From assembly GCA_000146465.1 (NCBI GenBank), contig CP001943.1: 64,000 nt of DNA. One strand, written 5' to 3'. The notes under the pieces were generated by a model that had not been told where the DNA came from, ran no database searches, and was given only the letters and a program-made list of their open reading frames with translations. The stretch's first letter is position 1. Every line of letters starts with the position of its first letter. A program made the position numbers and the translations under genes. This document shows, one piece after another, positions 1 to 64,000 of the stretch.

Positions 1-1920
1 TCGAACTCCAGCGATGCATGCGACAAGCTTAAGTCGCTGTACTATGAACTGAATTCCAAGGGATGTGATCTGGACCCGGTTACATCTCTAAGTATTGAGA
101 TAATCCCGAACAAGACGAACAGAACTTTGACCATCAAGGATAATGGGATTGGGATGACGAAGCCGGACCTGATGAACTTCATCGGAACTATTGCAAGCAG
201 TGGAACCAAGAAGTTCCGAGAGGAGATGAAGGAGAAGGGGAATGCAGCAGATGCCTCCAACCTGATTGGGCAGTTTGGTCTTGGATTCTACTCGTCATAC
301 CTTGTAGCGGACAGGGTTGATGTGATAACAAAGCATCCTGAGGATGAGGCTCTTGTGTGGACATCTACTGGAAGAGATGTGTACACTATAGAAGAGTACA
401 CTGGAGATTCTTTCTCTCACGGAACATCATTGGTGCTTTATATCAAGGAGGGAGAGGAGGAATTCTTGGATCCAAAGAAGATTAGTGAGATAGTGAAGAA
501 GTACTCTCTGTTTGTGTTCTATCCAATATACACATATGTTGAGAAGGAGATTGAAGAGCCTTCTGAGGAAAAGGAAGAAGAGAAGGAAGAAAAAGCAACC
601 GAGGAAACAACTGAGCCAAAGGTTGAAGAGGCGAAGGAGAAGAGACTGAAGAAGGTTACACAGAGGGAGCAGATCAATGCGGAAAAGCCCTTGTGGAAGA
701 GAAATATAAAGGAAGTTCCCGAGGAGGAGCTGAAGAGCTTCTACAAGACGATTTCCGAGGACTGGGATGACTTCCTTGCAGTTGACTTCTGGCGTGTTGA
801 GGGGCTTCTATCGATTGATCTTCTTATGTTTATTCCGAAGAGAGCCAGGTTTGATATGTTCAACAGGAACAAGAAGAACAACAACATTAAGCTGTACTGT
901 AAGAATGTGTTTGTGACTGATGATTTCGGAGATTCTATTCCCGAGTGGATGTCGTTTGTCAGTGGTGTGATTGCTTCTGATGACATTCCTATGAACATCA
1001 GCCGAGAGATGATCCAGGGAACAAATGTAATGAAGCTTGTCAAGAAGATTCTTCCACAGAAGATTTTCGAGATGATTGGAAAGCTTGCCATGGATGCTGA
1101 GAAGTACAAGACTTTCTACAAGGAGTTTGGAAACTGCATCAAGATGGCGATTGGAGAGGCAAGCGAAGGACAGCAGGATGGCTATGCAAAATGTCTTCGA
1201 TATTTCACTACAAAGAGTGGAGAGGAGATGGTGTCTTTGGATACATATGTGGAGAGGATGGCAGCCAACCAGAAGCAGATCTATGTGATAACAGGGCTTG
1301 GAAAGGATCAGGTCAAATCAAATCCAGCTCTAGATGCATTCCAGAAGTACGAGGTAATCTACATGTACGATGTGATGGATGAGGTCATGCTCCGAGGACT
1401 CAAGAAATACAAGGGACATGCTATTCAGAGGATAACAAGTGAAGGAGTAGAGCTTCCCGAAGATGAAGAAAACAATGAGGAAATTGTCAAGTCGTTCGAG
1501 GAGTTCTGCAAGAAGGCAAAGGATCTTCTCTCAAACAAGGTGGAGAAAGTTACGGTGAATCCAAGGCTTGTGAGTGCACCGGCAGTTATCTCGACAACTA
1601 AGTACTCTCTATCTGGAACGATGGAAAACATAATGAGGTCCCAGCCTGTCACAGAGGCAAATCCGTTTGCAGCAATGACTGCAGTCAGCAAGAAGATCTT
1701 CGAGATGAATCCCCACCATAAACTTGTCAAGAATCTTAAGACACTTTTCGATAACAACGAAATTGAAAAGATGGGTAAGATGCTGGAGCTGTTCTTTGAG
1801 ACGGTTCTTATCCACAATGGATTCATGCTGTCAGATCCTAAGACATTCTGTGCCAATGTCTTTGAGTTCCTTTGCTCCTCGGAAGTAAAGAGTGAGGAGC
1901 TTGTGGAAGAGGTCCAGTGA
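1..1920 (+). CDS. HSP90: Cytosolic heat-shock protein 90, 5'-truncated by the window edge
   Basis: Frame-1 translation from nt 1 reads SDACDKLKSLYYELN...NRTLTIKDNGIGMTKPDLMNFIGTIASSGTK, the GHKL ATPase N-domain motifs. A middle domain and the charged linker EEPSEEKEEEKEEKATEE follow. The C-terminal domain ends ...EELVEEVQ*. Confidence 0.85.
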   Translation, partial: SNSSDACDKLKSLYYELNSKGCDLDPVTSLSIEIIPNKTNRTLTIKDNGIGMTKPDLMNFIGTIASSGTKKFREEMKEKGNAADASNLIGQFGLGFYSSYLVADRVDVITKHPEDEALVWTSTGRDVYTIEEYTGDSFSHGTSLVLYIKEGEEEFLDPKKISEIVKKYSLFVFYPIYTYVEKEIEEPSEEKEEEKEEKATEETTEPKVEEAKEKRLKKVTQREQINAEKPLWKRNIKEVPEEELKSFYKTISEDWDDFLAVDFWRVEGLLSIDLLMFIPKRARFDMFNRNKKNNNIKLYCKNVFVTDDFGDSIPEWMSFVSGVIASDDIPMNISREMIQGTNVMKLVKKILPQKIFEMIGKLAMDAEKYKTFYKEFGNCIKMAIGEASEGQQDGYAKCLRYFTTKSGEEMVSLDTYVERMAANQKQIYVITGLGKDQVKSNPALDAFQKYEVIYMYDVMDEVMLRGLKKYKGHAIQRITSEGVELPEDEENNEEIVKSFEEFCKKAKDLLSNKVEKVTVNPRLVSAPAVISTTKYSLSGTMENIMRSQPVTEANPFAAMTAVSKKIFEMNPHHKLVKNLKTLFDNNEIEKMGKMLELFFETVLIHNGFMLSDPKTFCANVFEFLCSSEVKSEELVEEVQ

Positions 1921-1993
1921 ATCTTATTAAATAATTCTCTCAACACTTGTAACATTTGTGTTTCTGTTAATTGGCCCAAAAAAATTGCTGGGG

Positions 1994-4504
1994 ATGGAAG
2001 TGAAATTATGCGAAGATGCTTGGAAAGTTCTAAGTGCAATAAAGCAGACAATTGTTTCGGAAAGAATGAAAGATACGCCAGAGAACGTTACGGAGGCAGC
2101 GATTGAGACGTTTCTGGAGATGAGCCGAAGAAATGATCATTCGAAAGTGGAAGAGCTTCTTCAGATAATCCTGGCACATAAGAACTACATCACCGAGAAA
2201 AGTAGCACAGAGCTTGTGAGAAGAATTCTTCTCTCCTTTAAGGAGAAGAAGGTTTATCTCCAAGGACTCCGGGTAATCAAGCATTTTGTGAAAAGCGGGA
2301 GATATCACATGTCGCACTTCAAGATTCTTGTCGAAGACTGTTTTGGCCGGAAGTCACTAAAAACAAGGTCTGTGGAACTTGCAAAGAGATATCTGGAACT
2401 TGAGGAGTTTAGAAAGGAACTTCTAGGGTATATATCGAAGCTCGAAGGAACCGACTTGATAAGACACATCAACTGTTTCTTCGACTCTATTGCAGATGGA
2501 ATTGATGTTGTAGAGAAACTTGACTCATTTGTGAATCCGGATGTTTTTGAGGGGATGGAGACCGGCGAGGCAAGGGCACTGTACTCTGAATGCTGTGATA
2601 TGCTCTACAAATATACGTTGATGGAGATGGAGGTTGGAATTCCGGATGAAAAGGTTTTTGAATACATAGTGAAGAAGCTTCAGATCCTGTTTGAAATTCC
2701 TTTTCCCAGGGGAGGAAAGCTCTTGGAAACTCTTTCATTACTTGCAGAAAAGGACTTGGTTGTTTCTTTAAGGAGCAAGCAGCATTTGATGAGATGGGAT
2801 AAGAATCTGAAGAGAGAGGTTGTGAAAGAGCTCTGTGAGTCGAATTTGAAGAATGACAAAATATACGAGTTTATAAGATCTGTAAGGCACGTCCTTGTTC
2901 CCGAGTTCATGGATCTAATAAGACACATGGCAAGGAACTTTGTGGAAGGAGATGATAAATATCGATTTGCCCTTGGGGCAGTAGCAGGAATTATAGGAAT
3001 CGAGGATCTATTTCTGGTACTAGAAGACATGGAAATAGAGATTAGGACATGGGCACCAATTATCCGATGTTCTTCAAATGGAGACATATCGTTTTTCATA
3101 AAGATTCTCCGGGATGTGGAGGAAAGAAAAGGTGTGGAATCTATCGACAGAACGATTCTCTTGAACTGTATTCCTGCATTCTGCAACTATGCAACTGATC
3201 GTACGGGTTCAATTGAAGGTCTCCTACAAATCATGAAAGCCAACCTAGGGAATTCAAACGTTTTTAATTCGATATGCACAGGACTAAGGAAGTTGATGCA
3301 TTCCCACGAGAACAACATCAAGAACAACTTGATTCTTCGAAACCCGATTCCTCCTGGGGAGTCGGAGAGAATCCTCCACTCAATCAGGAAATCCGAGATT
3401 GCTTTGGACATTCTTTCTGTAGGAATTGGGAAGTGCTCTGATGAGCTGGATCAGACATTGTTCAAGCTACTGGAAACCGATGATTTTGGACTATCGAGCA
3501 GGATATTCCAGTATATCCTACTCTACCCTCAGATTGAGTCTGTTACAGTCGGAAAGTGGAATCTATCGGGGATTTCGGATGTAATGAAGGTTGCAAGGTA
3601 CTTTGTTCCAAAGATGAACAGCGATTTCGAGATTTATAGCAAGCTCATGGAGTTCTGTCTTTCTGAGGACGGGGGAGCACAGAAAAGAGCATATCAGCTT
3701 CTGTATCACATGAAGAAGCATCAAAAGATTGATCTGTGCATCTGCGACACTTTATTTTCCCACGAAACCGATGAGAAGACAAAGGACTGCTCCCAGAAAT
3801 GGAGGATTGCTCTTATTTATTCTGTTTATACAGTCGGATGCAAATGCTTTTCCGAGCGGAAGAAAGAATATCTCAACAGGATGCTTCCAGTGCTTGTGCT
3901 AGGTCTGAAGACAGGAAATGCTAAGGCCCGAAAGGTTTGTCAGGAAAATTTGGATGAACTTGTATCTGGGTTTTCATCTTCCGAATTTGATTTCTATTGT
4001 AGGCTAATGGTTGCAGGAACAGCATCGGAAAATGTAGTTCTCAGATGCGGAATACTGGAAGCCTCTGTTGCACTAATAGAGAGCCACAGAGAAAGACTTT
4101 CCCAAGAATTCATCCAGTCGATGTACGATGGCTGCCTCTCGACAAGTAGACTAGGAAGGGAAACTGTTCCCCATGTTCTCAAATTCTTAAATATCCTTGT
4201 TAGCACCTATGCAGTGAACCCTCAGGGATGTCTGGAAGTTTTAGAGCTATATGCAGACAAATTCAAAAGAAGATATGCAGAAGACGTCAAGTCGATTGTA
4301 TCAAGACTGATTAGAAGAGATGTGGAGATCCCCAAGAGTCTCCGCCTTTTCTTGAAGGAAAGAAAAAGAAAAGGTCCTCGGGCAACCTTACAGATAACGA
4401 AGAAAAACAACGTGATGATCACACAAGGAAAACAGAAACAGGAGAGCATTCCGTTTTCGGGCCACAGAAGAACCGTCAAGCGGAACAAGAGACACAAGAA
4501 ATAA
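1994..4504 (+). CDS. Large alpha-helical (HEAT/ARM-like) protein with a lysine/arginine-rich C-terminal tail; possibly RRP12-like nucleolar pre-ribosome export factor
   Basis: 837-aa ORF. The track start is GTG at 1958, and the first ATG (MEVKLCEDAW) is at 1994, preceded by ggCCCaaaaaaattgctGGGG. Repetitive helical segments and a 'QKRAYQLL' segment recall RRP12; that resemblance is from memory, with no alignment. The basic tail is KERKRKGPRATL...KRNKRHKK. Confidence 0.3.
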   Translation: MEVKLCEDAWKVLSAIKQTIVSERMKDTPENVTEAAIETFLEMSRRNDHSKVEELLQIILAHKNYITEKSSTELVRRILLSFKEKKVYLQGLRVIKHFVKSGRYHMSHFKILVEDCFGRKSLKTRSVELAKRYLELEEFRKELLGYISKLEGTDLIRHINCFFDSIADGIDVVEKLDSFVNPDVFEGMETGEARALYSECCDMLYKYTLMEMEVGIPDEKVFEYIVKKLQILFEIPFPRGGKLLETLSLLAEKDLVVSLRSKQHLMRWDKNLKREVVKELCESNLKNDKIYEFIRSVRHVLVPEFMDLIRHMARNFVEGDDKYRFALGAVAGIIGIEDLFLVLEDMEIEIRTWAPIIRCSSNGDISFFIKILRDVEERKGVESIDRTILLNCIPAFCNYATDRTGSIEGLLQIMKANLGNSNVFNSICTGLRKLMHSHENNIKNNLILRNPIPPGESERILHSIRKSEIALDILSVGIGKCSDELDQTLFKLLETDDFGLSSRIFQYILLYPQIESVTVGKWNLSGISDVMKVARYFVPKMNSDFEIYSKLMEFCLSEDGGAQKRAYQLLYHMKKHQKIDLCICDTLFSHETDEKTKDCSQKWRIALIYSVYTVGCKCFSERKKEYLNRMLPVLVLGLKTGNAKARKVCQENLDELVSGFSSSEFDFYCRLMVAGTASENVVLRCGILEASVALIESHRERLSQEFIQSMYDGCLSTSRLGRETVPHVLKFLNILVSTYAVNPQGCLEVLELYADKFKRRYAEDVKSIVSRLIRRDVEIPKSLRLFLKERKRKGPRATLQITKKNNVMITQGKQKQESIPFSGHRRTVKRNKRHKK

Positions 4505-4576
4505 AACTTCATTTAATTTTGGTCTTCAAAATAATTCTATCTGTTTTTTTATTTATCTCTTCTGTAGCACTAGAAG

Positions 4577-6388: not shown

Positions 6389-6447
6389 AGAAGGGACTTT
6401 CCTCCCAAAGGATTTATTACACTGGGGGCTTCTTGAAGCCCTTGGAC

Positions 6448-11871: not shown

Positions 11872-11955
11872 CCTCACTATAAAAGAGATTCCAATGGCAG
11901 TCCATTAGATTATCTATCCAAAATAACTTAAAATATACTTAGAATACTCTCAAGA

Positions 11956-12465: not shown

Positions 12466-12507
12466 AGAGGGTAAATATTTTACAAAGGTGTTAACTAGGA
12501 TAGGAGA

Positions 12508-12515
12508 CACCCCAA
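12508..12515 (+). promoter_or_regulatory. Representative CCC start-site motif (cacCCCAA|ATG) immediately upstream of the MCM4 start codon
   Basis: A C-triplet 1-12 nt upstream of the ATG recurs at about 31 genes in the window; see findings. Confidence 0.4.
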
Positions 12516-14642: not shown

Positions 14643-14699
14643 AATGGGTTTGCAAGGGACTAGTCTTCCTCCTAGGTTTGATTTAAATAAAATGGTGTC

Positions 14700-15311: not shown

Positions 15312-15314
15312 CAG

Positions 15315-15974
15315 ATGGTCTACCAAAAAAATGCAAATTTTTCCTCCCCGATGGCAAGTATTCCTAAGTCGAACGAAGTAATCTTTGTAAAGAATTATTA
15401 TAGCATGCTCTGCAACAGGCCATCGGTCATCCACCAATACTACATGAAGGATTCTCAGCTAACAATCTCCAAGGAGGCGAGCAAGCCCGAAATATGCACC
15501 GAGGACTTTGGGAAATACATCAAATCGAAGATATCCAGCCCAGTTTCCAAAGTATTCATATCTCACCTGTCTTTTCAAAAGATAGACAACCTGAAATCGG
15601 CTATAAGTGTCATCGGGCAATTTGTTTACAACGACTCGTCGCAAGTGAGAATATCTCATCAGTTCATTGTCTCGAGGATAGATTCTGTTCTATACATCAA
15701 GAACGAGATTCTGACGTTCCTAGACGAAGAGATTGCTTATGATCTGGACCATGATGCCAAGAAGGTTGTGGTTGTTGAATATGGAAAGAACGAAATGTTA
15801 CAGGCCATCAATGCTATTTCTGAGTTTGGAAAGATTAAATCTATGAAGTCTGAGGACGATGGCAAGGTTGTCATGACATTCGACAGTATAGAGGATGTGG
15901 AGAATATCAAGAAGAATGTTCCAAAGATAGTCTCGCAGGGATATAAGTTGGAGTTTGATGGGCTGAAAGTGTGA
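15315..15974 (+). CDS. NTF2-like domain protein with a C-terminal RRM-like segment (G3BP/NTF2-RRM type)
   Basis: NTF2-like core EASKPEICTEDFGKYIKSKI...ISHLSFQKIDNLKSAISVIGQFVYNDSSQVRISHQFIV, followed by KKVVVVEYGKNEMLQAINAISEFG. The track start at 15159 is TTG. Candidate ATGs are at 15315, 15405 and 15444, so the start is uncertain. Confidence 0.35.
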   Translation: MVYQKNANFSSPMASIPKSNEVIFVKNYYSMLCNRPSVIHQYYMKDSQLTISKEASKPEICTEDFGKYIKSKISSPVSKVFISHLSFQKIDNLKSAISVIGQFVYNDSSQVRISHQFIVSRIDSVLYIKNEILTFLDEEIAYDLDHDAKKVVVVEYGKNEMLQAINAISEFGKIKSMKSEDDGKVVMTFDSIEDVENIKKNVPKIVSQGYKLEFDGLKV

Positions 15975-20082: not shown

Positions 20083-20177
20083 TTTGTTTAATGGGCCAAA
20101 ATATTATCTGCCTATTCGTTGAGTGGCTGGCCGCAATACTACTAGAGGTATTCCAAGTCTTATACAAAGCCCCCGGG

Positions 20178-21947: not shown

Positions 21948-22005
21948 TCAATTGGTGTAATATGTTTTCAAAAATTTTTAAGTTTGTGTTTTAGTTTTCA
22001 CCCCA

Positions 22006-24123
22006 ATGGAGCATATGAAAAGTGGCTTTGAAAGTCCTCAACCGAATGAGGAAGACCTTTCTCCAAGGTCTATTATTGATGAATGCAACTACTACAGATC
22101 GACTCTGACAGCCATTCCCGAAAAGCAGGATTTAGTAAGAACGTCTGGAATTCCTTTTGTTATTAATGTGATACTAGAAAACTATGAAGAAGAAGAGGTT
22201 CCATTGTGCTCGGACGACATAATCCGATGTGAACGCTGCAAGTCTTACCTGAATCCTTTTGTTGAGATTATACCTCCAGGTCTGAAGTGGAAGTGCAATC
22301 TCTGCCTGACAATCAACGATCTGGCAACTGCCTTTCAAGTTACCAGCAGAGGGATATCTCGGACTAGTAGTCTGTTTGACCCCAAGGTGAATGCTATGCA
22401 TAATTACAGCTACTACACCCGAGGGGAGCTGAGAAGTACTGTTTATGAGCTAGAAGCACCACCGAATTACTCGCTCAAAACACCATCCCCTCCATTAATA
22501 TGCTTTCTCATAGAAGTGACTTTTGAAAGCATGAAATATAGATCTGTTGATGCAGTTATAAGAAGTATTCTAGGAGGGCTGAACCCAAGGTTCTTTGATC
22601 CAAGGTCTCGTATGATGTTTGCATTCTTCGACTCGTGCATATACCTTCTCAGGAAAAACGGAGACTTCTCCGTAATCTCGGATGCAACACATATTCCTTT
22701 CTTCTTAGAAGAGGACTTCTTGCTACCTCTTGATCATCGCTTCGACGTTGATGGGATAGAAAGGTTCTTCATAGAAAACAAGTCTACAAGAAACAATTAC
22801 GGAGATGCACTAAGGATTGTCCAGAACATCCTCGGTACCACTGGAGGATGCATAATCTCCTTTCTGGCAACATATCCAAACGTAGGCCCAGGGTGTGTGG
22901 ACTCCAATCAACATGAGCTAAGATGCAAGTCGGTATTTTACAAAGAAATATCGGTGTATTTGTCGAAGCAAGGTATATCTGTGACACAGTTTTTGTTTCC
23001 CCGACTTGGAATAGAACTTCCTACTCTTAGTGTATTAAGTAAGTATACAGGAGGAATGGTATACTATTACCCAAACTTCGATGGAACCGATCCTACATTT
23101 GCCACAAAGTTAGCTAATGATCTTGCTTCGCATCTCGATTTGAATATAGGGTTGTATGGAATGTGCAGAGTCAGAACCAGCAAGTGTGTGTTTATAAAGG
23201 AGTACTTCGGATCTTTACACCATAGGTCTGAGGATTTAATATCGTTTTCCACCTTCTTTCCTCCTCACTCATTCAGTTTTGAAATAGACATATCCAAGGA
23301 AGAAGGGACAAGGGGCGTTTGTTTCCAAGTGGCTATTCTTAGAACACTTCGTACTGGAGAAAGAAGAATCCGAGTAGTGAACTTTTGTATTGAAAAAGTG
23401 TCTAGATCATTGTACAGTGTTGTGGATCCTTATGCAGTAGCACATGCATTTGCTTTGAAAGCCTTTTTCTTCGAGTCGAGGACAAAGGGAGGAGGTAATG
23501 AGTATCTCAATAAGTCCATGAAGGATATTGTCAGATTGTACAAGCAGCTTTCCAATACAACAACCCTTTTACCTGCAACACTCGAGGTGCTTCCGATGCT
23601 CATCCTATCTCTTTGCAAGTCTATTCCCCTCAGACCTGCATCTTATACACCAATGGACTACAAATCCTACTACATATACCTGATTAGCAATTCCTACCCA
23701 AAGCTGGTTGATACAGTGATATATCCAACTTTACTCGCTTTACATCGGCTGGACTCTATACAGCCACTTAACCTAACTCTTAACTGCCTCGAGACAAACG
23801 GATTGTATTTACTAGATACCGGTGTGACCATCTTCTTTTTTGTGGCTAGAGACTGCGATCCATCTCTCCCGAACTTACTGTTCGACTCGTCCATAGGATC
23901 GGAAAGATTTATCTTCGATCCTGAAAGGAACGAATTTAGTGATTCTGTATGTAAGATAATCAAAGAGTTGAGAAGTAATAGGCATTTAACTCCCAACTAT
24001 GTGCTGGTGAGGGACGATGGCACAAGCAGCATATATAAGGACATATTCTTCACTTACTTTGTGGAAGACGAGTCTCACGGCCTTCCATCCTATTCTAAAT
24101 ATCTTGAATTGCTGAGGGCTTAA
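22006..24123 (+). CDS. SEC24: COPII coat protein Sec24-like (Sec23/Sec24 family)
   Basis: N-terminal zinc finger RCERCKSYLNPFVEII...KWKCNLCLTIND is the Sec24 pattern, followed by trunk, beta-sandwich and helical regions. ATG with caCCCCa upstream. Confidence 0.6.
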   Translation: MEHMKSGFESPQPNEEDLSPRSIIDECNYYRSTLTAIPEKQDLVRTSGIPFVINVILENYEEEEVPLCSDDIIRCERCKSYLNPFVEIIPPGLKWKCNLCLTINDLATAFQVTSRGISRTSSLFDPKVNAMHNYSYYTRGELRSTVYELEAPPNYSLKTPSPPLICFLIEVTFESMKYRSVDAVIRSILGGLNPRFFDPRSRMMFAFFDSCIYLLRKNGDFSVISDATHIPFFLEEDFLLPLDHRFDVDGIERFFIENKSTRNNYGDALRIVQNILGTTGGCIISFLATYPNVGPGCVDSNQHELRCKSVFYKEISVYLSKQGISVTQFLFPRLGIELPTLSVLSKYTGGMVYYYPNFDGTDPTFATKLANDLASHLDLNIGLYGMCRVRTSKCVFIKEYFGSLHHRSEDLISFSTFFPPHSFSFEIDISKEEGTRGVCFQVAILRTLRTGERRIRVVNFCIEKVSRSLYSVVDPYAVAHAFALKAFFFESRTKGGGNEYLNKSMKDIVRLYKQLSNTTTLLPATLEVLPMLILSLCKSIPLRPASYTPMDYKSYYIYLISNSYPKLVDTVIYPTLLALHRLDSIQPLNLTLNCLETNGLYLLDTGVTIFFFVARDCDPSLPNLLFDSSIGSERFIFDPERNEFSDSVCKIIKELRSNRHLTPNYVLVRDDGTSSIYKDIFFTYFVEDESHGLPSYSKYLELLRA

Positions 24124-24191
24124 TAAAACTGTTTGAAATCTCTTATCATATTCCATGGACTGCTTGAAAAGCCATGCCTGGCCTCCCCCCA

Positions 24192-27452: not shown

Positions 27453-27485
27453 TTCGAGGGTTAATTTTCGAGTAGAGATAGGCCC

Positions 27486-28442: not shown

Positions 28443-28475
28443 AAAGCAGTTATAGCAAGCCTGTGTATTGTACCC

Positions 28476-29453: not shown

Positions 29454-29533
29454 GGGATAAGACCATTGATGGATAATATCTTTAAGCCCCAGATCCAGCT
29501 TCCAAAATCAAAAAACAGCTTCTTTATGCCCCC

Positions 29534-32961: not shown

Positions 32962-33537
32962 TTAATCACCTCGATCTTCCCTGGCTGCTGAAAGCCTTTC
33001 TACCTTTCCTCCAATGAAATCTCTTATTCCTCTTTCGTTAATCGTATGAAATACATTCTTCTTTAAAGCTTCCCTATCCAACTCTAGAACATTGTCTTTA
33101 CACTTTACAAATAAATTGAATAGGGCCACCTCGTTATAGAACGGATGGTCTATATTACACAGATCCATTTCTTCTTCAGGCCTGTCATAAAGAATAAAGT
33201 TAAGCATCTTCCCATATTCCCTATCCAGACTACTCAATGAGGAGGTTGTCTTATTTCTGGTGCAGAAGTCATAATGAACTCGGAGAGCAAAAGAAATGTC
33301 TCCTGTGATTCCCTTTTCGCTTTTAAGAATTCCATTGATGATTCTTCTTTCGTCTGATGTATTTTCCCGATTGGCAGATGATTTGAGCATACCCATTATT
33401 TTTCTCTTTAGAGATATCTCCGGACCAAAATCCATACCGGGATCAAGAATACTTACCAGCTTATCGTATCCGTAAATATCTCTTTTCGCCAGATTCTTCC
33501 ATGCTGTCTTCTTTCTCTCGATGGCTTCCTTAATCAT
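32962..33537 (-). CDS. Hypothetical protein
   Basis: The track start at 33591 is TTG, and the first ATG (MIKEAIERKK) is at 33537. 191 aa. No family recognised. Confidence 0.25.
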   Translation of the reverse strand: MIKEAIERKKTAWKNLAKRDIYGYDKLVSILDPGMDFGPEISLKRKIMGMLKSSANRENTSDERRIINGILKSEKGITGDISFALRVHYDFCTRNKTTSSLSSLDREYGKMLNFILYDRPEEEMDLCNIDHPFYNEVALFNLFVKCKDNVLELDREALKKNVFHTINERGIRDFIGGKVERLSAAREDRGD

Positions 33538-33875
33538 TTGCTGTCTCCTATTTCCACAAATGACGGGGTTGTATTTCCCCCGAGTAACCAAGGATACATA
33601 CAGCTTCAGGTTCTCTGATCTCCTCTGGCCCTTAAAATTACTCGAGGATCGGAGGCAACCCTTTCCACATATGATCTTTTTCTCTTGGCATTCGGATGCA
33701 GATATAGATGTGATTTATCTGAGATTCTTATTCTTACAGCTGTAAACTTCGTTCTGTTTCCTACTAGCATGTATCCCTCACACAAACAGATAGAAACCTT
33801 TCTTGAAAAGAAGATCCCATAATCCAAAATCATTCGCTAGGGTTGGTTGAAAAATTAAAAACACCACATCCAGAG

Positions 33876-35537: not shown

Positions 35538-35608
35538 ACCCTCCTAGCTCTAATTCATGGCTAAATATAAAAGGTGATCACTACTCCAAAGAATACCAAA
35601 CAAAGAAT

Positions 35609-35926
35609 TTATTTTTCGCTTCCACCGGAGACATGCTCTACCAACGCAGAAACAACGTCTCCTTTGTTTCTCACATCTCTAAGCTTCTTGACCTTCATCT
35701 CAAATTCGGATTTTAGCCTTTCATCAACTACTTTTATGTATTCCTCAACTTCCTTTTCTAGAAGAAGTAACCTACTTTCGTTTTCCTTTCTAAGGTCCTC
35801 AACCATCAATCCTGCATCTCTTCTCGCTTGAGCCCTCATCTCCTCAAGCTCCCTACGTGCCATCTCTAGCTTCTCTTTGGCATCGTTCTCGCACTGGACA
35901 AGTCTTTTAATACTTTCGACAGACAT
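35609..35926 (-). CDS. Small coiled-coil protein, possibly V-type ATPase subunit G
   Basis: 105 aa with N-terminal SIKRLVQCENDAKEKLEMARRELEEMRAQAR, like the V-ATPase G N-terminal helix. ATG preceded by caGGGGt. Confidence 0.3.
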   Translation of the reverse strand: MSVESIKRLVQCENDAKEKLEMARRELEEMRAQARRDAGLMVEDLRKENESRLLLLEKEVEEYIKVVDERLKSEFEMKVKKLRDVRNKGDVVSALVEHVSGGSEK

Positions 35927-36037
35927 ACCCCTGTGTTGGGCGCGTTGCTTGTCTTTTATAAGCCCGAGTGTTCAAACCCAACATAAAGCAAATGTGTTTA
36001 TTTGTACAAAAAATAGACAGATATTTTCTTGTAATAT

Positions 36038-38180: not shown

Positions 38181-39683
38181 ATGACTAAACAGAAGTTTGG
38201 GCTAACAGCCAAAAAAGAAGAAGATTTTTCCGAATGGTATGTACAGGTTATAACAAAAGGAGAGATGATAGATTACTACGAGATTAAAGGATGCTATGTG
38301 ATGCGCCCCCAGGGACAGTTTGTCTGGAAGTGTATCCAGAAATGGTTTACCGAAAAGATTGAAGAACTTGGTGTCCAAGAATGCTATTTTCCCATGCTAG
38401 TTCCCAAGTCGACGCTTGAAAAAGAGAAGAACCATGTGGAAAATTTTTCCCCCGAAGTAGCATGGATTACTAAGTGTGGAAATGAGGTCTTGGGAGATCC
38501 AGTTGCCGTGCGTCCTACATCCGAAACAATAATATATCCTTCTTTTTCTAAGTGGATAAGAAGCCACAGAGATCTTCCTCTAAAAATAAACCAATGGTGT
38601 AGTGTGCTGAGATGGGAGCTACATGGGACCCTCCCTTTTATAAGAGGGAAGGAGTTTCTATGGCAGGAAGGGCACACAGCTTTTCTGACGAAAGAGGAAT
38701 CGGATGTGGAGGTTTTTGCAATTCTGGATCTTTACTCCAGAATATACTCGGAGCTCCTTGCAGTTCCCGTGATAAAAGGAAGAAAGTCAGAAAGCGAGAA
38801 GTTTGGGGGAGCAGATTACACCACGTCCATTGAAGCCTTTATCCCTGGATCAGGCCGGGGAATTCAAGCGGGAACCTCCCATTCCTTGGGACAGAACTTC
38901 TCAAAAATGTTTGATATTAAGGTCGACACAGAAGAAGGATCCGAAAATAGCAGCTTTGTCTACCAGAACTCCTGGGGGCTAACCACCCGATCCATTGGAA
39001 TTGCAATTATGATACATTCGGACAACCTTGGGTTGGTGCTTCCCCCAAGAGTAGCTATGATTCAGGTTGTTGTTATTCCCTGTGGGATAACAGCATCCTC
39101 TTCGGAAGAGGACGTTGAAAGTTTACGCACATACATAAGCAAAATACATGCCCAGCTCAAAAACTTCGTTCGTGTGCATGTGGACGATCGGAATAATGTA
39201 ACTGTTGGATTCAAATTCAATCATTGGGAAATAAGAGGGGTTCCGTTAAGGTTAGAGGTTGGGTTCAAAGATATGGCTAACTCGGAAGCTTGCTTAGTTA
39301 GAAGGGACACCCGTGCCAAAAAGCAGGTATCTGTGGAGGATATCGGGCAGACAGTAATGGAGGAAATAGATACCATGCACAACGATATGCTTAGTAGGGC
39401 TACCACAGAAAGAGATAGGAGAATTTCATATGTAAGAAGCTTCGAGGAGTTTATGTCTTCTCTTGAAAACAAAAAAATGATAATGGCACCGTGGTGTGGA
39501 GTTGATAAATGTGAAGCCAACATTAAATCTAAAACCACAAAGTTTGGGCCCAACGGAAATGTAGTTTCGACTGGGGCAAAGACCTTATGTATTCCTTATG
39601 AGGCAAAGTCCTGCAATGGAATGGAATGTATCAACTGCAACCAGAAGGCTATCCATTATGCTTTATTTGGAAGATCCTACTAA
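38181..39683 (+). CDS. ProRS: Prolyl-tRNA synthetase (class II, eukaryotic/archaeal type)
   Basis: Class II motifs, anticodon-binding domain and the C-terminal zinc-binding tail ending ...HYALFGRSY*. The track ATG is at 38157. The second ATG (MTKQKFGL) at 38181 is preceded by ccaCCCttt. Confidence 0.75.
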   Translation: MTKQKFGLTAKKEEDFSEWYVQVITKGEMIDYYEIKGCYVMRPQGQFVWKCIQKWFTEKIEELGVQECYFPMLVPKSTLEKEKNHVENFSPEVAWITKCGNEVLGDPVAVRPTSETIIYPSFSKWIRSHRDLPLKINQWCSVLRWELHGTLPFIRGKEFLWQEGHTAFLTKEESDVEVFAILDLYSRIYSELLAVPVIKGRKSESEKFGGADYTTSIEAFIPGSGRGIQAGTSHSLGQNFSKMFDIKVDTEEGSENSSFVYQNSWGLTTRSIGIAIMIHSDNLGLVLPPRVAMIQVVVIPCGITASSSEEDVESLRTYISKIHAQLKNFVRVHVDDRNNVTVGFKFNHWEIRGVPLRLEVGFKDMANSEACLVRRDTRAKKQVSVEDIGQTVMEEIDTMHNDMLSRATTERDRRISYVRSFEEFMSSLENKKMIMAPWCGVDKCEANIKSKTTKFGPNGNVVSTGAKTLCIPYEAKSCNGMECINCNQKAIHYALFGRSY

Positions 39684-44725: not shown

Positions 44726-44908
44726 ATGGGAGGGATCAGCGAGAAGTTGAAAGGACTAAAGTTTATGCAAAGAGCGGAGAGAAAAAACAATGGGGATGGA
44801 GAGGTGTCGTTTTCGACGTACTTTTGCAAGAAAGGAATTTTCAGTTACTGCAGCAAGCAAAAGATCCACGATAAGGAAGACGAAGCTCAAAAAAAGGCCA
44901 GGAACTAG
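44726..44908 (+). CDS. Candidate small basic protein (60 aa), unannotated and of uncertain identity
   Basis: ATG (MGGISEKLKGLKFMQRAERKN...) preceded by the same start-site motif, gctCCCagg. It lies in a 296-bp gap that is otherwise unusually long for this window. Confidence 0.3.
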   Translation: MGGISEKLKGLKFMQRAERKNNGDGEVSFSTYFCKKGIFSYCSKQKIHDKEDEAQKKARN

Positions 44909-46213: not shown

Positions 46214-46346
46214 TGTGGGTCTCCCTCCATGAAATATATATTTAAATGTTTGTGTGCTTCTATTATTAAATATGTTGTTGGGCTTTTTCTGTTTATCCTA
46301 GAAAGTTGGATAACTACAATTGAGAAAAAATAAAAACAAATCCTGG

Positions 46347-48282: not shown

Positions 48283-48340
48283 GTAGATGGAATTCTTGGA
48301 TCTCAGCATGATGAAATGGAGAATTCCCAGGAACCCTGCT

Positions 48341-49162: not shown

Positions 49163-49236
49163 TGACAAAGTCTATGCTTGCGGAAGCAGTTCTCTTCTCG
49201 ACCAAATTTTTATGATTTGCGATCCCCTGGCGGTCT

Positions 49237-50868: not shown

Positions 50869-50913
50869 ATGCCATACTCCAACCGTATTTAGATTTAGTT
50901 TTTGTTTCCCTGG

Positions 50914-54117: not shown

Positions 54118-54195
54118 GAACAGTTTCCTTTTTACCCTCCAGGAGGGAAGGCAAACTTAAATAAAATCGTGAAATAGTTTTAATTAGTTGTCTCT

Positions 54196-54666: not shown

Positions 54667-54802
54667 GTTTTCAAGGGGCTTCTTTGTTTAACTACTAAAG
54701 ATATTCAGCTTCATTTGTTTCAAAGGTGATTGATTTCAAGCAAACACTGTTCGTTACCAATAAGATTTCCTCCTTAAGAGACGTTTGTTACAAATTATCC
54801 AA

Positions 54803-55354: not shown

Positions 55355-55437
55355 TTGGGTATGCTTTTTTTAGTTTCAGGTATTCATGGGTTTGTAGAGG
55401 TTGGGACTCTGTAAGGCCCCGTGTCTGCAAGTGCATA

Positions 55438-55519
55438 GGTTGGATGGCCGAGTGGTCCAAGGCGCTGGCTTAAGGTGCCAGTCTCTCAGGAGGCGTGGGT
55501 TCGAACCCCACTCCAGCCA
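55438..55519 (+). tRNA. tRNA-Leu(AAG): tRNA-Leu (anticodon AAG), type II with a long variable arm
   Basis: GGTTGGA acceptor stem pairs with TCCAGCC (one G-U pair). D-arm GCCGAGTGGTCCAAGGC. Anticodon stem CTGGC/GCCAG with loop TTAAGGT. The long variable arm is TCTCTCAGGAGGCGT. T-arm GGGTTCGAACCCC. Discriminator A; no encoded CCA. Confidence 0.85.
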
Positions 55520-55524
55520 TTTTT
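55520..55524 (+). terminator. Pol III T-run terminator directly after tRNA-Leu
   Basis: TTTTT immediately 3' of the discriminator base. Confidence 0.5.
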
Positions 55525-55624
55525 CTTGGTGGAATTCCGGGCTTACTTTTGAATTCTTATCAAAAATACATTAGAGATTTCTCTGCACAACAATAAATAG
55601 GTAGAAAACCGATATTTTATTTCT

Positions 55625-58219: not shown

Positions 58220-58319
58220 TAGGGTTCAAAAGTTTTCACAATGAATAGATATTTATTTTGTTTTTATAATCTAGGATCCACTACAGCCTTAAATAAAATA
58301 TTCATACTTTCTAACACCA

Positions 58320-58490
58320 TTACCTAATCCTTCCAGATAATTCGTTTCTTATTTCTTTAAGAAGTTGAATGAGGTTCTTCGGGCTCATTCCAGAATCCAA
58401 AAGCTTGTACATTTGATCAATTGTATCCTCTCCAAAGTGCAGCTTTAGCTCTTTAGCAAACTCCAATATGTCCTTGTATCCATCTTCCAT
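58320..58490 (-). CDS. MZT1: MOZART1-like gamma-tubulin complex mini-protein (Mzt1)
   Basis: 56-aa product MEDGYKDILEFAKELKLHFGEDTIDQMYKLLDSGMSPKNLIQLLKEIRNE. The ...SGMSPKNLIQLLKEIR block resembles the MZT1 core ...QGINPEALSSVIKELR. The track start at 58523 is TTG. Confidence 0.4.
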   Translation of the reverse strand: MEDGYKDILEFAKELKLHFGEDTIDQMYKLLDSGMSPKNLIQLLKEIRNELSGRIR

Positions 58491-58562
58491 GCCAGACCAG
58501 AGAACAACACCAGGGGGAGACAAATTTTTTGTTCATTTTTGCCGATGGTACGGCAGAATTAC

Positions 58563-58868
58563 TTATTTATTCTGGCGACTAATCTCTGCCATCCTCTCTA
58601 GATGTTCACTAGTCGGGAGGCTTTTAGAGCCTTGAATCTCTCTTCCTCCAAAACTGTAGTCAAAGTCCTTTTCAATAATAAATCGTATATCTCCATTGTC
58701 CACAATATTCTTTCCCTTGTGCTTGCACAGAAGCGCAGATCGATGAATTATATCCGATAAAAACTTCTCTGTTAGGAGCTGAAGGTTCCTTATTACGTCC
58801 TTATCAATCTTTTTGTTACAAAGCTTCAAGAGCTTTTTTGGGCAAAGAAAGTGATGTTCGATGTTCAT
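58563..58868 (-). CDS. TAF12: TFIID subunit TAF12-like histone-fold protein
   Basis: Histone-fold segment LLKLCNKKIDKDVIRNLQLLTEKFLSDIIHRSALLCKHKGKNIVDNGDIRFIIEKDFDYSFGG parallels the TAF12 C-terminus (...VKDVQLHLERQWNMWIPGFG). The track start at 58880 is TTG. The ATG (MNIEHH) at 58868 is preceded by gatCCCCaaa. Confidence 0.45.
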   Translation of the reverse strand: MNIEHHFLCPKKLLKLCNKKIDKDVIRNLQLLTEKFLSDIIHRSALLCKHKGKNIVDNGDIRFIIEKDFDYSFGGREIQGSKSLPTSEHLERMAEISRQNK

Positions 58869-58914
58869 TTTGGGGATCAAAAACTCAACAAGACTATTTT
58901 CCCCTTTTTCTCAA

Positions 58915-60015
58915 ATGGTAGAGATAATAGATAAAATACGGGAGATAAAATATGCAGATGAAATGGATTATATTGTTGAAGGATTGGTTAACAATGAAAT
59001 AGAGGAATCCTTGAGGTTAATACTTGACTTGACAAATGATGAGAAGTTCAAAAGCTACATGAAAGAATCCAGGTATTTGGATGAAATAATCCAGGTAATA
59101 TCTGAGAAGGGGGTATTAGAAACTACATCCGGTATGGTGCTTGAGATATTATCAAGGACTTTCAATCCATATTCTCTTGTTGATTTCAAGGGTTTATTTA
59201 AGGTCCTGGCGATGGCATTTAATAGGTGTGAAGTGGAAAATATATCGGCAGAGTCTTCTATCTGTGTCCAAAGGGAGGCAAACTTCATTACAGAAATACT
59301 AGAGAAAATTCCGATTAAGTGGTATTCTAAATTTTCTAATCACACAGAGCTCAGAAAAGTGGTTTTTTCCTTACAGATGTGTACAAGCAGAAAAGTGATA
59401 GAATGGAACAAGTTTCTGATTTCTCTTCTAATGAAGCATCCTGAATTAGGAATTATCGATGATTTTGCTTCCATTCTATTGAAGAAAGGTAGAAACTACG
59501 AAGTAATAGCAAATTATACAATGTTTAGGGAAAATGCTGAAAAGTTATTTCTTAGTGAGAACTTCAGACAGTGTTTAAGAAGAGTAGTTATAAAGGAGTT
59601 CATAAAAGACAAAGATTATAAAAGGCCCAGATACATGCTGAAAGGACTTACCCCGAAGTCTCTTGTCCTGCCAGTTCCCGAAACAAAAAAAAAAGAGAGC
59701 TTGGGAGGAATAGAAAAAGACTCAAAAAGCTTGAGTAGGAAAAGATTTTTGATAATAATACTTATCAATTTGCTTTTTAGAGATTTCCATTTAGACATTC
59801 CTCTAAGCTTGATTGAAAGAGCCTATTATAGTGTGGATGAAATAACCAGATGTTACATAGCCATACTTCTTCTTTCAATTGAATATTCGGAAAAGAACAC
59901 TGTTCAAAGTATACATGTTGAAGATCTTAAGAAAGATGCGAGACATCTACTTTCCATCTCCAATACATGCTTATGCGAAGAAATCCTAAATAGATTAATC
60001 AAAATATCAAGTTAG
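58915..60015 (+). CDS. Hypothetical protein
   Basis: The track ATG at 58861 would overlap the TAF12 start. The second ATG (MVEIIDKIRE) at 58915 is preceded by tttCCCCtttttctcaa. 367 aa. No family recognised. Confidence 0.3.
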   Translation: MVEIIDKIREIKYADEMDYIVEGLVNNEIEESLRLILDLTNDEKFKSYMKESRYLDEIIQVISEKGVLETTSGMVLEILSRTFNPYSLVDFKGLFKVLAMAFNRCEVENISAESSICVQREANFITEILEKIPIKWYSKFSNHTELRKVVFSLQMCTSRKVIEWNKFLISLLMKHPELGIIDDFASILLKKGRNYEVIANYTMFRENAEKLFLSENFRQCLRRVVIKEFIKDKDYKRPRYMLKGLTPKSLVLPVPETKKKESLGGIEKDSKSLSRKRFLIIILINLLFRDFHLDIPLSLIERAYYSVDEITRCYIAILLLSIEYSEKNTVQSIHVEDLKKDARHLLSISNTCLCEEILNRLIKISS

Positions 60016-60099
60016 CCCCAAGAAAACATTGTGATTCATCTCGATTATCGATTGAGTTTCTTAGGCAGAATTTATTTTGTTGTATTTTAAACCCCAGCC

Positions 60100-61374
60100 A
60101 TGGCAGACAAATCTCTAATTCAGGATGATAAAGAAGTTGCAAGAGAGTTATTTGCAATGATTAAACAAGACACTACTGCAATAGAAACAGGCCTTGATGG
60201 AAATGTCAGCGGTGTGGTAACCGATAGAGGAAAGCTTTTGGTTGCAGAACATTTCTCCGATATGGGCTTGTCAGACGAACTTCTAAAGGCCATTTACAAC
60301 AGGGGTTTTGAAAAGCCGAGCTTAATTCAAAAGTCTGCAGTTCCCCACATCCTTAAAGGACACAACATTGTAGTCCAAAGCAAAAGTGGAACTGGGAAAA
60401 CAATAGCTTTTACCTGTGGGATCCTTGGAAATGTAAATGCTGGGGAAGGGACCCAGGCATTAGTGGTTACACCCACTAGAGAACTAAGTACTCAGGTCAC
60501 CGAGGTTATTTCAGGCTTTGCAGAATCTCTTGGAATGAAGGTTTTTTCGGCATTAAAAAATAAGACTACAGACATTGTTAGGGAGGAAGTTGTGGTCGGA
60601 AGCCCGGGAACGATTCTAAAGCTCATTGACCTTGGGAAGCTTAATCACAAGGAAATTAAGATGGTGGTTCTTGACGAGGCAGATATCCTCCTTGATAAAG
60701 ACATGATGGGAACACAGACATTTAGAATACTCAAGCTTGTTTCTGGTGCACAAATTATTTTCTTCTCTGCAACATACTCTGACCAAGTGAAACAGACAAT
60801 CGAGTTCTACACACCAGATGCCGTCAAGATGTATGAAGAGAGAAATGGAAAACCCGAAGAGATTAAGTTATTTTACATAGAGGCAGAAGGAGATAACAAA
60901 AGAAAAGCATTGAAATCACTTTATGAGTATCTTTCAATCAGCCAGATGATTATATTTGTAAGTACAAAGGCAACGGTCAATTACTTAAGAAAAAGACTGG
61001 AAGATGATTTACATTCAGTATCATGTCTTCATGGAGATCTGGAGATTGAGGAGAGAGAAAAAGCAGTGGAGGAGTTTAGAACTTCAAAAACCAAAATTCT
61101 CCTTACAACAGATGTCTTTTCAAGGGGGATGGACATTCCTCAAGTCAATCTAATTGTGAACTATGATCTTCCAATATACAAAGGTGTTGCATCTACACAA
61201 ACGTACATTCACAGGATAGGAAGATCTGGAAGATTTGGAAGGACTGGGTTTGTGGTGGATTTTGTTCGGGATGAAGAGCTGGAGGCATATCTGAAATTCC
61301 AAAAGGAATTGAAATTTGCATCAAAGAAATTTACAATCAAGGCGCTTGAGGAGGTTGCAGAAGAGATCGACTAG
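60100..61374 (+). CDS. DBP5: DEAD-box RNA helicase Dbp5/DDX19-like (mRNA export)
   Basis: Q-motif and P-loop FEKPSLIQKSAVPHIL...SKSGTGKTIAF, DEAD box VLDEADILLD, SAT motif FSATYS, and HRIGRSGRFGRTG. The short N-terminus and spacing fit Dbp5. ATG preceded by aaaCCCCagcc. Confidence 0.6.
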   Translation: MADKSLIQDDKEVARELFAMIKQDTTAIETGLDGNVSGVVTDRGKLLVAEHFSDMGLSDELLKAIYNRGFEKPSLIQKSAVPHILKGHNIVVQSKSGTGKTIAFTCGILGNVNAGEGTQALVVTPTRELSTQVTEVISGFAESLGMKVFSALKNKTTDIVREEVVVGSPGTILKLIDLGKLNHKEIKMVVLDEADILLDKDMMGTQTFRILKLVSGAQIIFFSATYSDQVKQTIEFYTPDAVKMYEERNGKPEEIKLFYIEAEGDNKRKALKSLYEYLSISQMIIFVSTKATVNYLRKRLEDDLHSVSCLHGDLEIEEREKAVEEFRTSKTKILLTTDVFSRGMDIPQVNLIVNYDLPIYKGVASTQTYIHRIGRSGRFGRTGFVVDFVRDEELEAYLKFQKELKFASKKFTIKALEEVAEEID

Positions 61375-61503
61375 TAAATAAATATCTTGAGACTTGGAAG
61401 TATGAAAGAGTCGGCTTTCTGCTTGGCACAATATATGTATTTATTTCAAATAAAACTTTTGATATGTAGGCATGTTTAAAAATTAATTTTCAAAGTCCTT
61501 AGA

Positions 61504-63621
61504 ATGGAAGGTCTAGAAGATGATTTCATACCGGATTTTACACATTTGTCTGTTGCAGGGGAAGTGGCCGATAGAAATAGCTTGGTTAGACAGGAGGGGG
61601 ATGTCGTGTACATTTCAGTGGGTAATCGACTCAACGGATGGAATTTAAGATTTTCGGAAATTGAGAAGAGTATACCCACTCTTAAGAAAAGAATAACCCA
61701 TTTCGACTTTTCCGATGGGGTATTGGTGATAGGCTATGAAAACGGAGCTATCCAAGTGCATTCAAGCGAAATAATATCGTTCCGCCCACACTCTAGAAGA
61801 GTCACAAAAGTCTCAAAGATAGGAGACTATATTTTGTCTTCTTCGGCAGACGGCAGCATCATTTTATACGACTTAATTGGAGAGGAAATTCGAATATCGT
61901 ATGAAGGAAATGACATATGTGTCGAAAAGTTTTTTTCTGATTCTTCGGTAGTTATTGGAATTTGTTCTGATAATGCATTGAGAATCTGGAATCTCGAAGA
62001 GAAGCATGTAAAAAGCGTCCACATCTTTGGAAAGGCCATAAAAGACGTGTTTGCCGTCAATGAAGAGGCCTTAATATTTTTCAAGGATGGAGAATGTATT
62101 TTCTATAATTTAGTAGAGAAGACATCTCGTCCCTTCAACAAATTTAAGAAACTAAGGAATATCAAAGTGAGAGGGAATAAGATGTTCCTTCAGAACAAAA
62201 ATAAGTTACACATATATGAAATAGATAGCAAAGATAAGATTGTACTGAGAGATCTTGAAGCTGAAAAAATAAGCGATAGATATACTGATTTTGATGTGAT
62301 GCCAGATGGAGGGCTTTTGTTTGCTACTATTGACAACAGTTGGGAGTGCTTAAAGGATGGAAAGATATACCCATTTGGATTTCACAGAAGTGAGATTCTG
62401 GGCCTTGAGACCTGCGAGGACAAGATTGTCACAATGTCGAAGGAAAGCATAATCTTCTGGGTGATAGACAAAAAAGAAATGAAAAGAGTTGGAAACATAC
62501 AGATAAAAAACGGAAAATGCATGTGCATATGGAATGGCCATGTGGTAATTGGCGGGAGTGAAGGACTTTCTTGCTACTCAGGCTTAAATTATCTCCTAGT
62601 TAAAGAAGAAAATATAGGGCCTATATCATCTGTTTTTGCCACCAGACAAGAACTACTTGTAGGGAAAGATAACAGCCTTCTGTTCTATGACAATAGATGG
62701 GTTGTTTCAAGAACATTAGAAGTAGAAGACCCCATATCGTCGATAGAAGCTTCTCAAGACGGATCTCTACTTTGCATAGGTCTCTTAAATAGCAAGGTAC
62801 ACATATATGGTATGAACGAATTGAATCTAAGAATTACCCTTTATGGACATGCTCTTCCAGTAAGGTCTATGAAGCTATCTCCCGACAATTCGGAAATCCT
62901 CACATGCGGTTCAGACAAGACCGTTAAGATGTGGGGAACACAGTTTGGAGAATGTAGGAAAAGCTTCATTGGCGATTCAAGAAGTATAGAATATTGGAAC
63001 AAAGATCTGTTTATGTTTACATCAGGTGTTATTCAGTACTTTAAGAGATATGAAAAACTTAAGGAGTTCAAGAACCGCGAATCAAACTTGGTCAAAATAA
63101 GAAAGGACATGATGATTTCCTGTGGAAAGTTTAATGTTGATCTTTATACCATGAACAAATATGAATTTCAAAAAGAAGATGAGGAGGAAAGCAATGAGGA
63201 AGAAGTTATGAGGGTAGCCAAGATAATGAATTATAAGATGTATGACCGTTTTCTAACCGAATTGGAAGAGTTATCAAAGGATTTCTCCAGTGACAACATT
63301 AAGACGTTTTTTAATGTTTTAATGGATATAGACTTTTGTGAACTGGACAAGTTTTTATGTCTAATGAACTCTTCCGACATTATCCAGGTCATGAATGTAT
63401 TGCATGAATGTTGTAATTGGAATGCGATACTGGTTGCAAGGGTATTCATTTCTTTGGTTAGACTCCACAAAGATATATGTATTTCCCATCCAAAGTTCAA
63501 GGTTTTTCTTCAGACGATTACCGATAAAACAAAAGAGGTTAGAACTCAAGTTAGCAGAAACCAGGGACTTCTTCTCACGAGGAAAAGTATAAACAAAGAA
63601 CAAAGCTTTAGCGTGGAATAA
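61504..63621 (+). CDS. UTP12: WD40-repeat nucleolar protein, Utp12/WDR3 (Dip2)-like small-subunit processome component
   Basis: Multiple WD repeats. The segment ITLYGHALPVRSMKLSPDNSEILTCGSDKTVKMWGTQFGECRKSFIGDSRSIEYWNKDLFMFTSG parallels WDR3. A C-terminal helical Utp12-like domain follows. Confidence 0.4.
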   Translation: MEGLEDDFIPDFTHLSVAGEVADRNSLVRQEGDVVYISVGNRLNGWNLRFSEIEKSIPTLKKRITHFDFSDGVLVIGYENGAIQVHSSEIISFRPHSRRVTKVSKIGDYILSSSADGSIILYDLIGEEIRISYEGNDICVEKFFSDSSVVIGICSDNALRIWNLEEKHVKSVHIFGKAIKDVFAVNEEALIFFKDGECIFYNLVEKTSRPFNKFKKLRNIKVRGNKMFLQNKNKLHIYEIDSKDKIVLRDLEAEKISDRYTDFDVMPDGGLLFATIDNSWECLKDGKIYPFGFHRSEILGLETCEDKIVTMSKESIIFWVIDKKEMKRVGNIQIKNGKCMCIWNGHVVIGGSEGLSCYSGLNYLLVKEENIGPISSVFATRQELLVGKDNSLLFYDNRWVVSRTLEVEDPISSIEASQDGSLLCIGLLNSKVHIYGMNELNLRITLYGHALPVRSMKLSPDNSEILTCGSDKTVKMWGTQFGECRKSFIGDSRSIEYWNKDLFMFTSGVIQYFKRYEKLKEFKNRESNLVKIRKDMMISCGKFNVDLYTMNKYEFQKEDEEESNEEEVMRVAKIMNYKMYDRFLTELEELSKDFSSDNIKTFFNVLMDIDFCELDKFLCLMNSSDIIQVMNVLHECCNWNAILVARVFISLVRLHKDICISHPKFKVFLQTITDKTKEVRTQVSRNQGLLLTRKSINKEQSFSVE

Positions 63622-64000
63622 ATTGCTTTCAAACCTATCTAGATACAATAACTATTCAGAAAAAAGGTCCTAACAGAAAGAATTTAGATCTGAGGGACAA
63701 GTATTTCAAAGTATCTTCATCAGGCTTGGCTCAGTTTGATAGCATCCTACGTTTTCATTAAAAGTTTTAAAAATTGGCTCCTTAAATGATTATTTGAATT
63801 CACATGATTTGTTGAACTAGTAGAAAGATAGAAGTATATCTTGAGAAGGATCGGATTTACATTATAGAAAGAAACAAACGCTCAGGAATTTCTAATAGAA
63901 ATACTGGAAGAAGTTCTGGCATAGTGGAACTTTAGATTATAAGATAGTAGAATTTGGAGAAGAGACTATAGATAATAAATAATGTATTCCAAATGTAAGT

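Follow-up and report, generated by a model that had tools for sequence, protein, structure and literature searches.

A sense-strand cytosine triplet lying within 15 nucleotides (nt) of the start codon was first reported by Cornman 2009 in Nosema ceranae and Encephalitozoon cuniculi, where it is over-represented at positions -10 to -3 and carries a purine on its 5' side and a pyrimidine on its 3' side (PMC2685015). For E. cuniculi, Peyretaillade 2009 described a CCC-like and a rarer GGG-like signal adjoining 5' untranslated regions shorter than 7 nt; CCC was assigned to 1474 genes and GGG to 117, 364 start codons were corrected, and the motif was found in four further species (PMC2803860). The motif has been used to find small genes in four Encephalitozoon genomes (PMC4589312), and it is used by MicroAnnot (2024), which was benchmarked on the manually re-annotated Encephalitozoon intestinalis genome (PMC10815200). 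Here we examine runs of at least three cytosines (C-runs) upstream of the start codons in a stretch of 64 kilobases (kb) from contig CP001943.1 (assembly GCA_000146465.1), the whole of which is referred to below as the window. That such runs mark the start codons of the window is correct but already known, having been published since 2009 and applied to the annotation of this species.

With a G+C content of about 40%, the window is coding nearly throughout, on both strands. It belongs to the E. intestinalis genome: E. intestinalis proteins are 100% identical to the MCM4 (strain ATCC 50506), trehalase and AlaRS of the window, and E. intestinalis contig JBLUPK010000003.1 (GCA_051312795.1) matches it base for base along 22 kb, which bears out the microsporidian-like origin proposed in an initial annotation of the same DNA. 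Public gene calls span positions 2516-64000 of the window, 45 genes have their start inside it, and the Pfam hits attached to these calls are consistent with the gene names that the initial annotation had given. HSP90 (1-1920, plus strand) was excluded from all counts on the 45 starts because the left window edge cuts the gene. The ATG at 154, which has GGG runs upstream, was rejected as a start, since Pfam places it inside HSP90, a gene that continues off the left edge.

Cytosine runs ahead of the start codons

In 33 of the 45 starts (73%), a C-run is separated from the ATG by 0-12 nt, compared with 8.9% of all ATGs (p = 1.5e-24), close to the initial estimate of about 31 of 46 starts with a run 1-12 nt from the ATG. 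In 26 of those 33 starts the run lies within 6 nt of the ATG, and gaps of 2-4 nt are the commonest. Enrichment is also seen when annotation is set aside and the first ATG of each of 44 non-overlapping open reading frames (ORFs) is taken: CCC is present at -15 to -1 in 24 of the 44, as against 7.4% of 539 internal in-frame ATGs (Fisher, p = 4e-14) and 8.9% of all 2486 ATGs on both strands. When all 64 trinucleotides are ranked, CCC comes first (p = 1.5e-24), followed by its overlapping neighbours CCT, GCC and ACC.

The signal is sharply placed and strand-specific. Counted in 10-nt bins from -60 towards the ATG, CCC occurs 3, 4, 4, 4, 15 and 38 times, and within the same upstream sequences CCC is found 33 times and GGG 5 times (binomial, p = 4e-6). 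Control windows, for which 46 starts were used with the HSP90 ATG at 154 still included, contained a C-run in 4/46 cases at -30 to -16, 3/46 at -45 to -31, 3/46 over the 15 nt that follow a stop codon and 0/46 in coding sequence at +4 to +18. Shuffling the 60 nt upstream of each gene (5000 trials) produced a mean of 3.8 starts with a run and a maximum of 12, against the 33 observed. These analyses confirm the C-run before ATGs as a genuine feature, far from random and limited to the last ~15 nt.

The enriched 3-mers point to an R-CCC-T/A core (R, purine). Directly 3' of the 33 runs the base is T in 18, A in 13 and G in 2, and A+T content is 63-67% at -60 to -21 compared with 57% at -20 to -1. 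The bracketing of CCC by a purine and a pyrimidine behind an A/T-rich lead is a tendency here, not a rule. The example strings quoted in the initial annotation are all present at the ATGs to which they were attributed; the string for MCM4 needs correcting, as it has four cytosines and not five (caCCCCaaATG).

We compared 40 gene starts with their counterparts in three other species (E. hellem, E. cuniculi and Ordospora colligata), using the stretches syntenic to the MCM4, trehalase and AlaRS neighbourhoods. A run in E. intestinalis is matched at 78 of 82 orthologous starts by one within 12 nt of the ATG, compared with 6 of 32 where E. intestinalis has none (p = 5.5e-16). For 43 of the 78 the distance between run and ATG is identical, and for 21 others it differs by no more than 1 nt. 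When the 40 upstream nt are aligned with MAFFT, invariant columns make up 71% of those in the C-run, against 30% of other columns and 20% of those with C outside a run (p = 1.4e-15). Invariant run columns beside diverging flanks indicate that the C-run is under purifying selection while the spacer around it drifts.

Seven genes are annotated at a motif-adjacent ATG that lies 3' of the first ATG of the ORF, namely SPC25 (12465), NTF2 (15351), DNA ligase I (Lig1, 20178), Cnd1 (24192), ProRS (38181), the GPN-loop GTPase (GPN, 48341) and a gene of 366 amino acids (aa; 58915). For each of the seven an in-frame upstream ATG is missing from one orthologue or more, and the annotated N-termini match across species. 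The in-frame upstream ATG is absent for Cnd1 in E. hellem and E. cuniculi, for Lig1 in E. cuniculi and O. colligata, and for GPN in all three orthologues. Because orthologues without the upstream ATG exist and the N-termini agree, the motif-adjacent ATG is the start that the species have in common. In Lig1, the N-terminus MSKILF follows CCC in the three Encephalitozoon species, and the O. colligata protein begins MTGRVLF, likewise after CCC. Among the starts that the initial annotation had selected by the motif, those of Lig1 and GPN are borne out by the orthologues and that of the CDK7-like protein kinase by a CCC at a gap of 3 nt; two details need correcting, as GDI has the expected N-terminus but no C- or G-run, and the C-run of Uba2 ends 17 nt upstream of the ATG and hence beyond the 1-12 nt that had been noted.

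Database entries differ at two further starts. The current E. intestinalis call for Sec24 is at 22015, three codons after the ATG at 22006 that the initial annotation had used, and the ATG at 22015 is missing from E. cuniculi. AlaRS is held in two lengths, 864 aa (MMW...) and 863 aa (MW...).

The run as a probable transcription-start signal

We favour, with a probability of roughly 85%, the reading that these runs represent the microsporidian CCC-like signal for transcription initiation, acting as a core-promoter or initiator-like element by which the transcription start is fixed beside the ATG. The element would be a short sense-strand motif, roughly R-CCC-T/A, placed mostly after A/T-rich sequence and 0-12 nt before the initiator ATG. 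It would position RNA polymerase such that transcription begins a few nt downstream; the resulting mRNA would be almost leaderless, its first AUG would be the start codon, and at a minority of genes a G-run would replace the C-run. In E. cuniculi, 5' rapid amplification of cDNA ends (RACE) on six genes mapped mRNA 5' ends to 1-7 nt before the AUG, adjoining CCC (PMC2803860), and CCC or GGG also adjoins the RACE-mapped starts of 18 non-coding RNAs transcribed by various polymerases (PMC5499648).

The start context in the window is compatible with transcripts of this kind. At -3 the 45 starts have C in 15, T in 11, G in 10 and A in 9 (purine 19/45, no preference), at +4 they have A or G in 40/45 and at +5 A in 26/45, and upstream ATGs are depleted in the last 15 nt (2/45 compared with 23%). 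The lack of a purine bias at -3, the bias at +4 and +5 and the depletion of upstream ATGs are together consistent with near-leaderless mRNAs.

In its main properties the element is like the published microsporidian signal: it occurs in the same genus, within 15 nt of the ATG, with a peak at -10 to -3 and a use in correcting start codons, and it may also share the purine-CCC-pyrimidine tendency and the minority GGG form. Its frequency of 73% stands beside the 74% of E. cuniculi before start correction (1474/1996), and the +4 and +5 preferences beside published values of ~78% and ~45% (PMC2803860). No difference of substance from the published signal emerged, though GGG does not rise above background in this 64-kb sample. 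The initiator (Inr) and TATA elements of other eukaryotes offer a wider likeness, as each is a short element at or near the transcription start with A/T-rich sequence upstream, and the C-run likewise would fix the start position. Unlike Inr, the run does not read YYANWYY, and it would sit nearly atop the start codon because leaders are almost absent; unlike both Inr and TATA, the microsporidian element has been proposed to serve all three RNA polymerases, through common factors (PMC5499648).

A role in translation, with the C-run acting as a Kozak-like context or as an element of the leader that the reduced ribosome or the initiation factors of microsporidia would recognise, would also account for a run near the ATG at conserved spacing, for the way in which the run singles out the correct ATG among alternatives, and for the coding-side bias of 40/45 for A or G at +4; the run adjoins the AUG as a Kozak context does and shares its preference for G or A at +4. 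We nevertheless regard this as improbable, since the gap ranges from 0 to 12 nt across genes, unlike the fixed Kozak position, and purines are not preferred at -3. Furthermore, with leaders of 1-7 nt as in E. cuniculi the more distant runs fall outside the mRNA (PMC2803860), and CCC or GGG is found before mapped starts of non-coding RNAs too (PMC5499648).

The two remaining explanations are very improbable. Annotation circularity, in which starts were picked for following CCC, deserves consideration because the CCC/GGG rule is used in microsporidian annotation pipelines (PMC10815200), so that annotated starts depend in part on the motif; alternatively, the signal could reflect intergenic base composition, CCC plus GGG amounting to 23 per kb in intergenic sequence and 16 in coding sequence. 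Against such an artefact, the enrichment persists with mechanically chosen first ATGs (24/44 compared with 7-9%), is strand-specific within identical sequences (33 compared with 5), is absent from -45 to -16 and from 3' flanks, and lies far above shuffles of the genes' own upstream sequence; moreover, the run is kept while flanking bases diverge, and for the relocated starts there are orthologues in which no other ATG is available. Short spacers could bring a 3'-end processing or termination signal of the upstream gene close to the next ATG, as the intergenic spacers are tiny (median 59-78 nt) and force 3' and 5' signals together, and transcription overrun has been reported in E. cuniculi (PMC2803860). 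The C-run is not such a signal, because divergent pairs, which have no upstream 3' end, carry it at 16 of 18 starts, compared with 17 of 27 tandem starts, a difference that is itself suggestive at most, these being raw counts; it is also not enriched in the 15 nt after stops (3/46), and it keeps its distance from the ATG across species. Circularity, base composition and a 3'-end signal are thus each contradicted by the first-ATG, shuffle, conservation, divergent-pair and orthologue-start results.

Several points weigh against a transcription-start signal as the explanation. The element is not universal, as both CCC and GGG are missing from ten of the 45 starts; this is a larger share than the 41 of 1996 left unexplained in re-annotated E. 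cuniculi, a published count in which one-base-degenerate motifs were accepted (PMC2803860). Five of the ten genes, trehalase (41749, minus strand), PMT (32894, minus), a 177-aa gene (17278, minus), GDI (46347, plus) and WDR3 (61504, plus), have no C- or G-run before the ATG in any of the four species, and the initial view of a single shared initiation signal was therefore overstated. Four C-runs directly abut the ATG, and there either transcription must begin inside the run or the mRNA must lack a leader altogether. The sequence upstream of tRNA-Leu, described below, is ambiguous and lends no clear support. The action on transcription and the position of transcript starts at this locus are what we infer from the published 5' RACE in E. 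cuniculi, and we know of no protein that binds the motif.

Individual sites, the guanine form and run-less genes

The coordinates of the individual elements are collected in Table 1.

Table 1. C-runs, G-runs and related upstream elements in the window
Element	Position	Strand	Gene and distance to its start	Further detail
CCCC	12510..12513	+	2 nt before MCM4 ATG 12516	identical run and gap in E. hellem, E. cuniculi and O. colligata
CCC	12469..12471	-	3 nt before SPC25 ATG 12465	3-nt gap in all four species
CCCC	22001..22004	+	1 nt before Sec24 ATG 22006	ATG directly after CACCCCA in four of four species
CCCCCC	24185..24190	+	1 nt before Cnd1 ATG 24192	first ATG at 24174
CCCCCGGG	20170..20177	+	abuts Lig1 ATG 20178	first ATG of the ORF at 20091
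CCCCC	29529..29533	+	gap 0 to Cnd2/Brn1 ATG 29534	
CCC	27483..27485	+	abuts ATG 27486 of 318-aa gene	
CCC	28473..28475	+	abuts Dim1 ATG 28476	
CCC	48334..48336	+	4 nt before GPN-loop GTPase ATG 48341	first ATG of the ORF at 48287
CCC	50908..50910	+	3 nt before CDK7-like protein kinase ATG 50914	TTCCCTG/A in all four species
CCC	58222..58224	-	2 nt before AlaRS ATG 58219	
CCC	55357..55359	-	2 nt before Spc24 ATG 55354	
GGGG	35928..35931	-	1 nt before ATG 35926 of 105-aa V-ATPase-G-like gene	CCC 11 nt upstream
GGG	35539..35541	-	1 nt before BRCT-protein ATG 35537	without CCC
GGGG	1990..1993	+	abuts RRP12-like gene ATG 1994	
AAATCCTGG	46336..46346	+	precedes GDI ATG 46347	no C- or G-run, only ATCCTG
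CCCC	55417..55420	+	17 nt before tRNA-Leu(AAG) 55438-55519	only non-coding RNA gene of the window

In divergent pairs each gene can have a run of its own. MCM4 and SPC25 are separated by a 50-nt spacer that holds a separate sense-strand CCC for each, and TAFII28 (27452, minus strand), which diverges from the 318-aa gene across 33 nt, carries a CCC of its own at a gap of 5 nt. The sequence upstream of Spc24 is ATACCCAA in the three Encephalitozoon species and GTACCCAAAC in O. colligata, in which the C-run is retained at a gap of 4 nt. Two very small genes are also present: a 60-aa gene (44726-44908, plus strand) has CCC 3 nt before its ATG and a protein start, ISEKLKGLKFMQ, that is conserved in four species, and the C-run of a 56-aa gene (58320-58490, minus strand) ends 22 nt upstream of the ATG.

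GGG precedes 4 of the 45 starts, two of them alongside CCC, at a background of 9-12%, and among the 12 CCC-less starts of the 64-kb window GGG is not enriched (2/12 compared with 10%, p = 0.34). The three examples of a GGG variant given in the initial annotation (1994, 35537 and 35926) do exist and are conserved, while the frequency of the variant (4/45) is that of background. The start at 35926 carries both forms, CCC at a gap of 11 nt and GGGG at a gap of 1 nt; GGG(G)-T-ATG is found there in all four species, and O. colligata keeps GGG with CCC gone. A G-run lies within 7 nt of the BRCT-protein ATG in three of four species, the exception being E. cuniculi. The O. colligata orthologue of the RRP12-like gene reads CCCAGGG-ATG, so that the G-run abuts the ATG in both species compared. 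A G-run is thus kept beside the ATG in 3/3 orthologues of the 105-aa gene, 2/3 of the BRCT gene and 1/1 of the RRP12-like gene. Cross-species conservation, and not enrichment, is what would back a role for GGG here.

The run-less genes are few, and some have conserved upstream sequence of another kind. Upstream of GDI, AAACAA(A)TCCTG (AAACAAATCCTG) is kept in all four species, and WDR3 has a conserved TCCTT block similar to that of GDI. The GDI block may be either a one-base-degenerate "TCC" form of the motif or a different element, and the five run-less genes as a group could likewise represent a one-base-degenerate form or a separate promoter class. Their transcription might start from a different element, or their leaders might be longer at another life-cycle stage. 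In PMT, a conserved GTTTCAG(G/A)TGTG element lies ~30 nt upstream of the ATG.

An AAATTT hexamer occurs within 60 nt upstream of five starts, those of the KH and NTF2 genes (one shared site), Sec24, a RIBIOP/Bms1-like gene and the 56-aa gene. This is like the AAATTT-like, A-rich element that Peyretaillade 2009 described for highly expressed microsporidian genes, and unlike it in that the published element was defined on ribosomal-protein genes, of which the window has none, and that few genes of the window carry AAATTT. AAATTT-like sites lie on the 5' side of the CCC at ~49200-49236 (RIBIOP/Bms1-like), 15312-15350 (the 39-nt spacer of the divergent KH and NTF2 genes), ~21960-22005 (Sec24) and ~58500-58520 (56-aa gene), and these four upstream regions hold 4 of the 25 AAATTT sites of the window in ~4% of its length. 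Upstream of the CCCC of the RIBIOP/Bms1-like gene, GCCAAATT is conserved in four species.

tRNA-Leu(AAG) lies between Spc24 and AlaRS, has a T-run on its 3' side and is syntenic in all four species. Upstream of it, E. intestinalis has CCCC, E. hellem GGGGG and GGG, E. cuniculi GGGGGG and O. colligata no run. We consider it doubtful that the run-less genes form a distinct conserved promoter class and, separately, that the switch between C- and G-runs at tRNA-Leu reflects an element readable in either orientation. A second tRNA prediction, a tRNA-Val called by ARAGORN at 38652-38750 (plus strand), was taken as a probable false positive, being 99 nt long, within the ProRS coding sequence and without an Rfam match in the window.

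Surroundings of the window and significance

The window is followed immediately on its right by an asparagine synthase gene and by genes of the DUF3654/DUF1609 families. These families occur typically at the ends of Encephalitozoon chromosomes, and the window is therefore probably near a subtelomere. At ~33616, in a minus-strand gene (32962-33833), 4 base pairs (AGAA/CAGA) are missing in the window compared with two other E. intestinalis sequences (GCA_051312795.1 and Logan ERR13302946). This loss frameshifts a 291-aa gene that is conserved in E. hellem, E. cuniculi and Ordospora; either the assembly from which the window comes is in error here or the gene is a strain-specific pseudogene.

What the window contributes is a quantified, phylogenetically controlled confirmation of the microsporidian signal together with a few local annotation points only. 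For microsporidia the signal is a practical key to the calling of start codons and of very small genes. It also shows extreme compaction in a eukaryotic genome, with promoter and start codon within a few nucleotides of each other.

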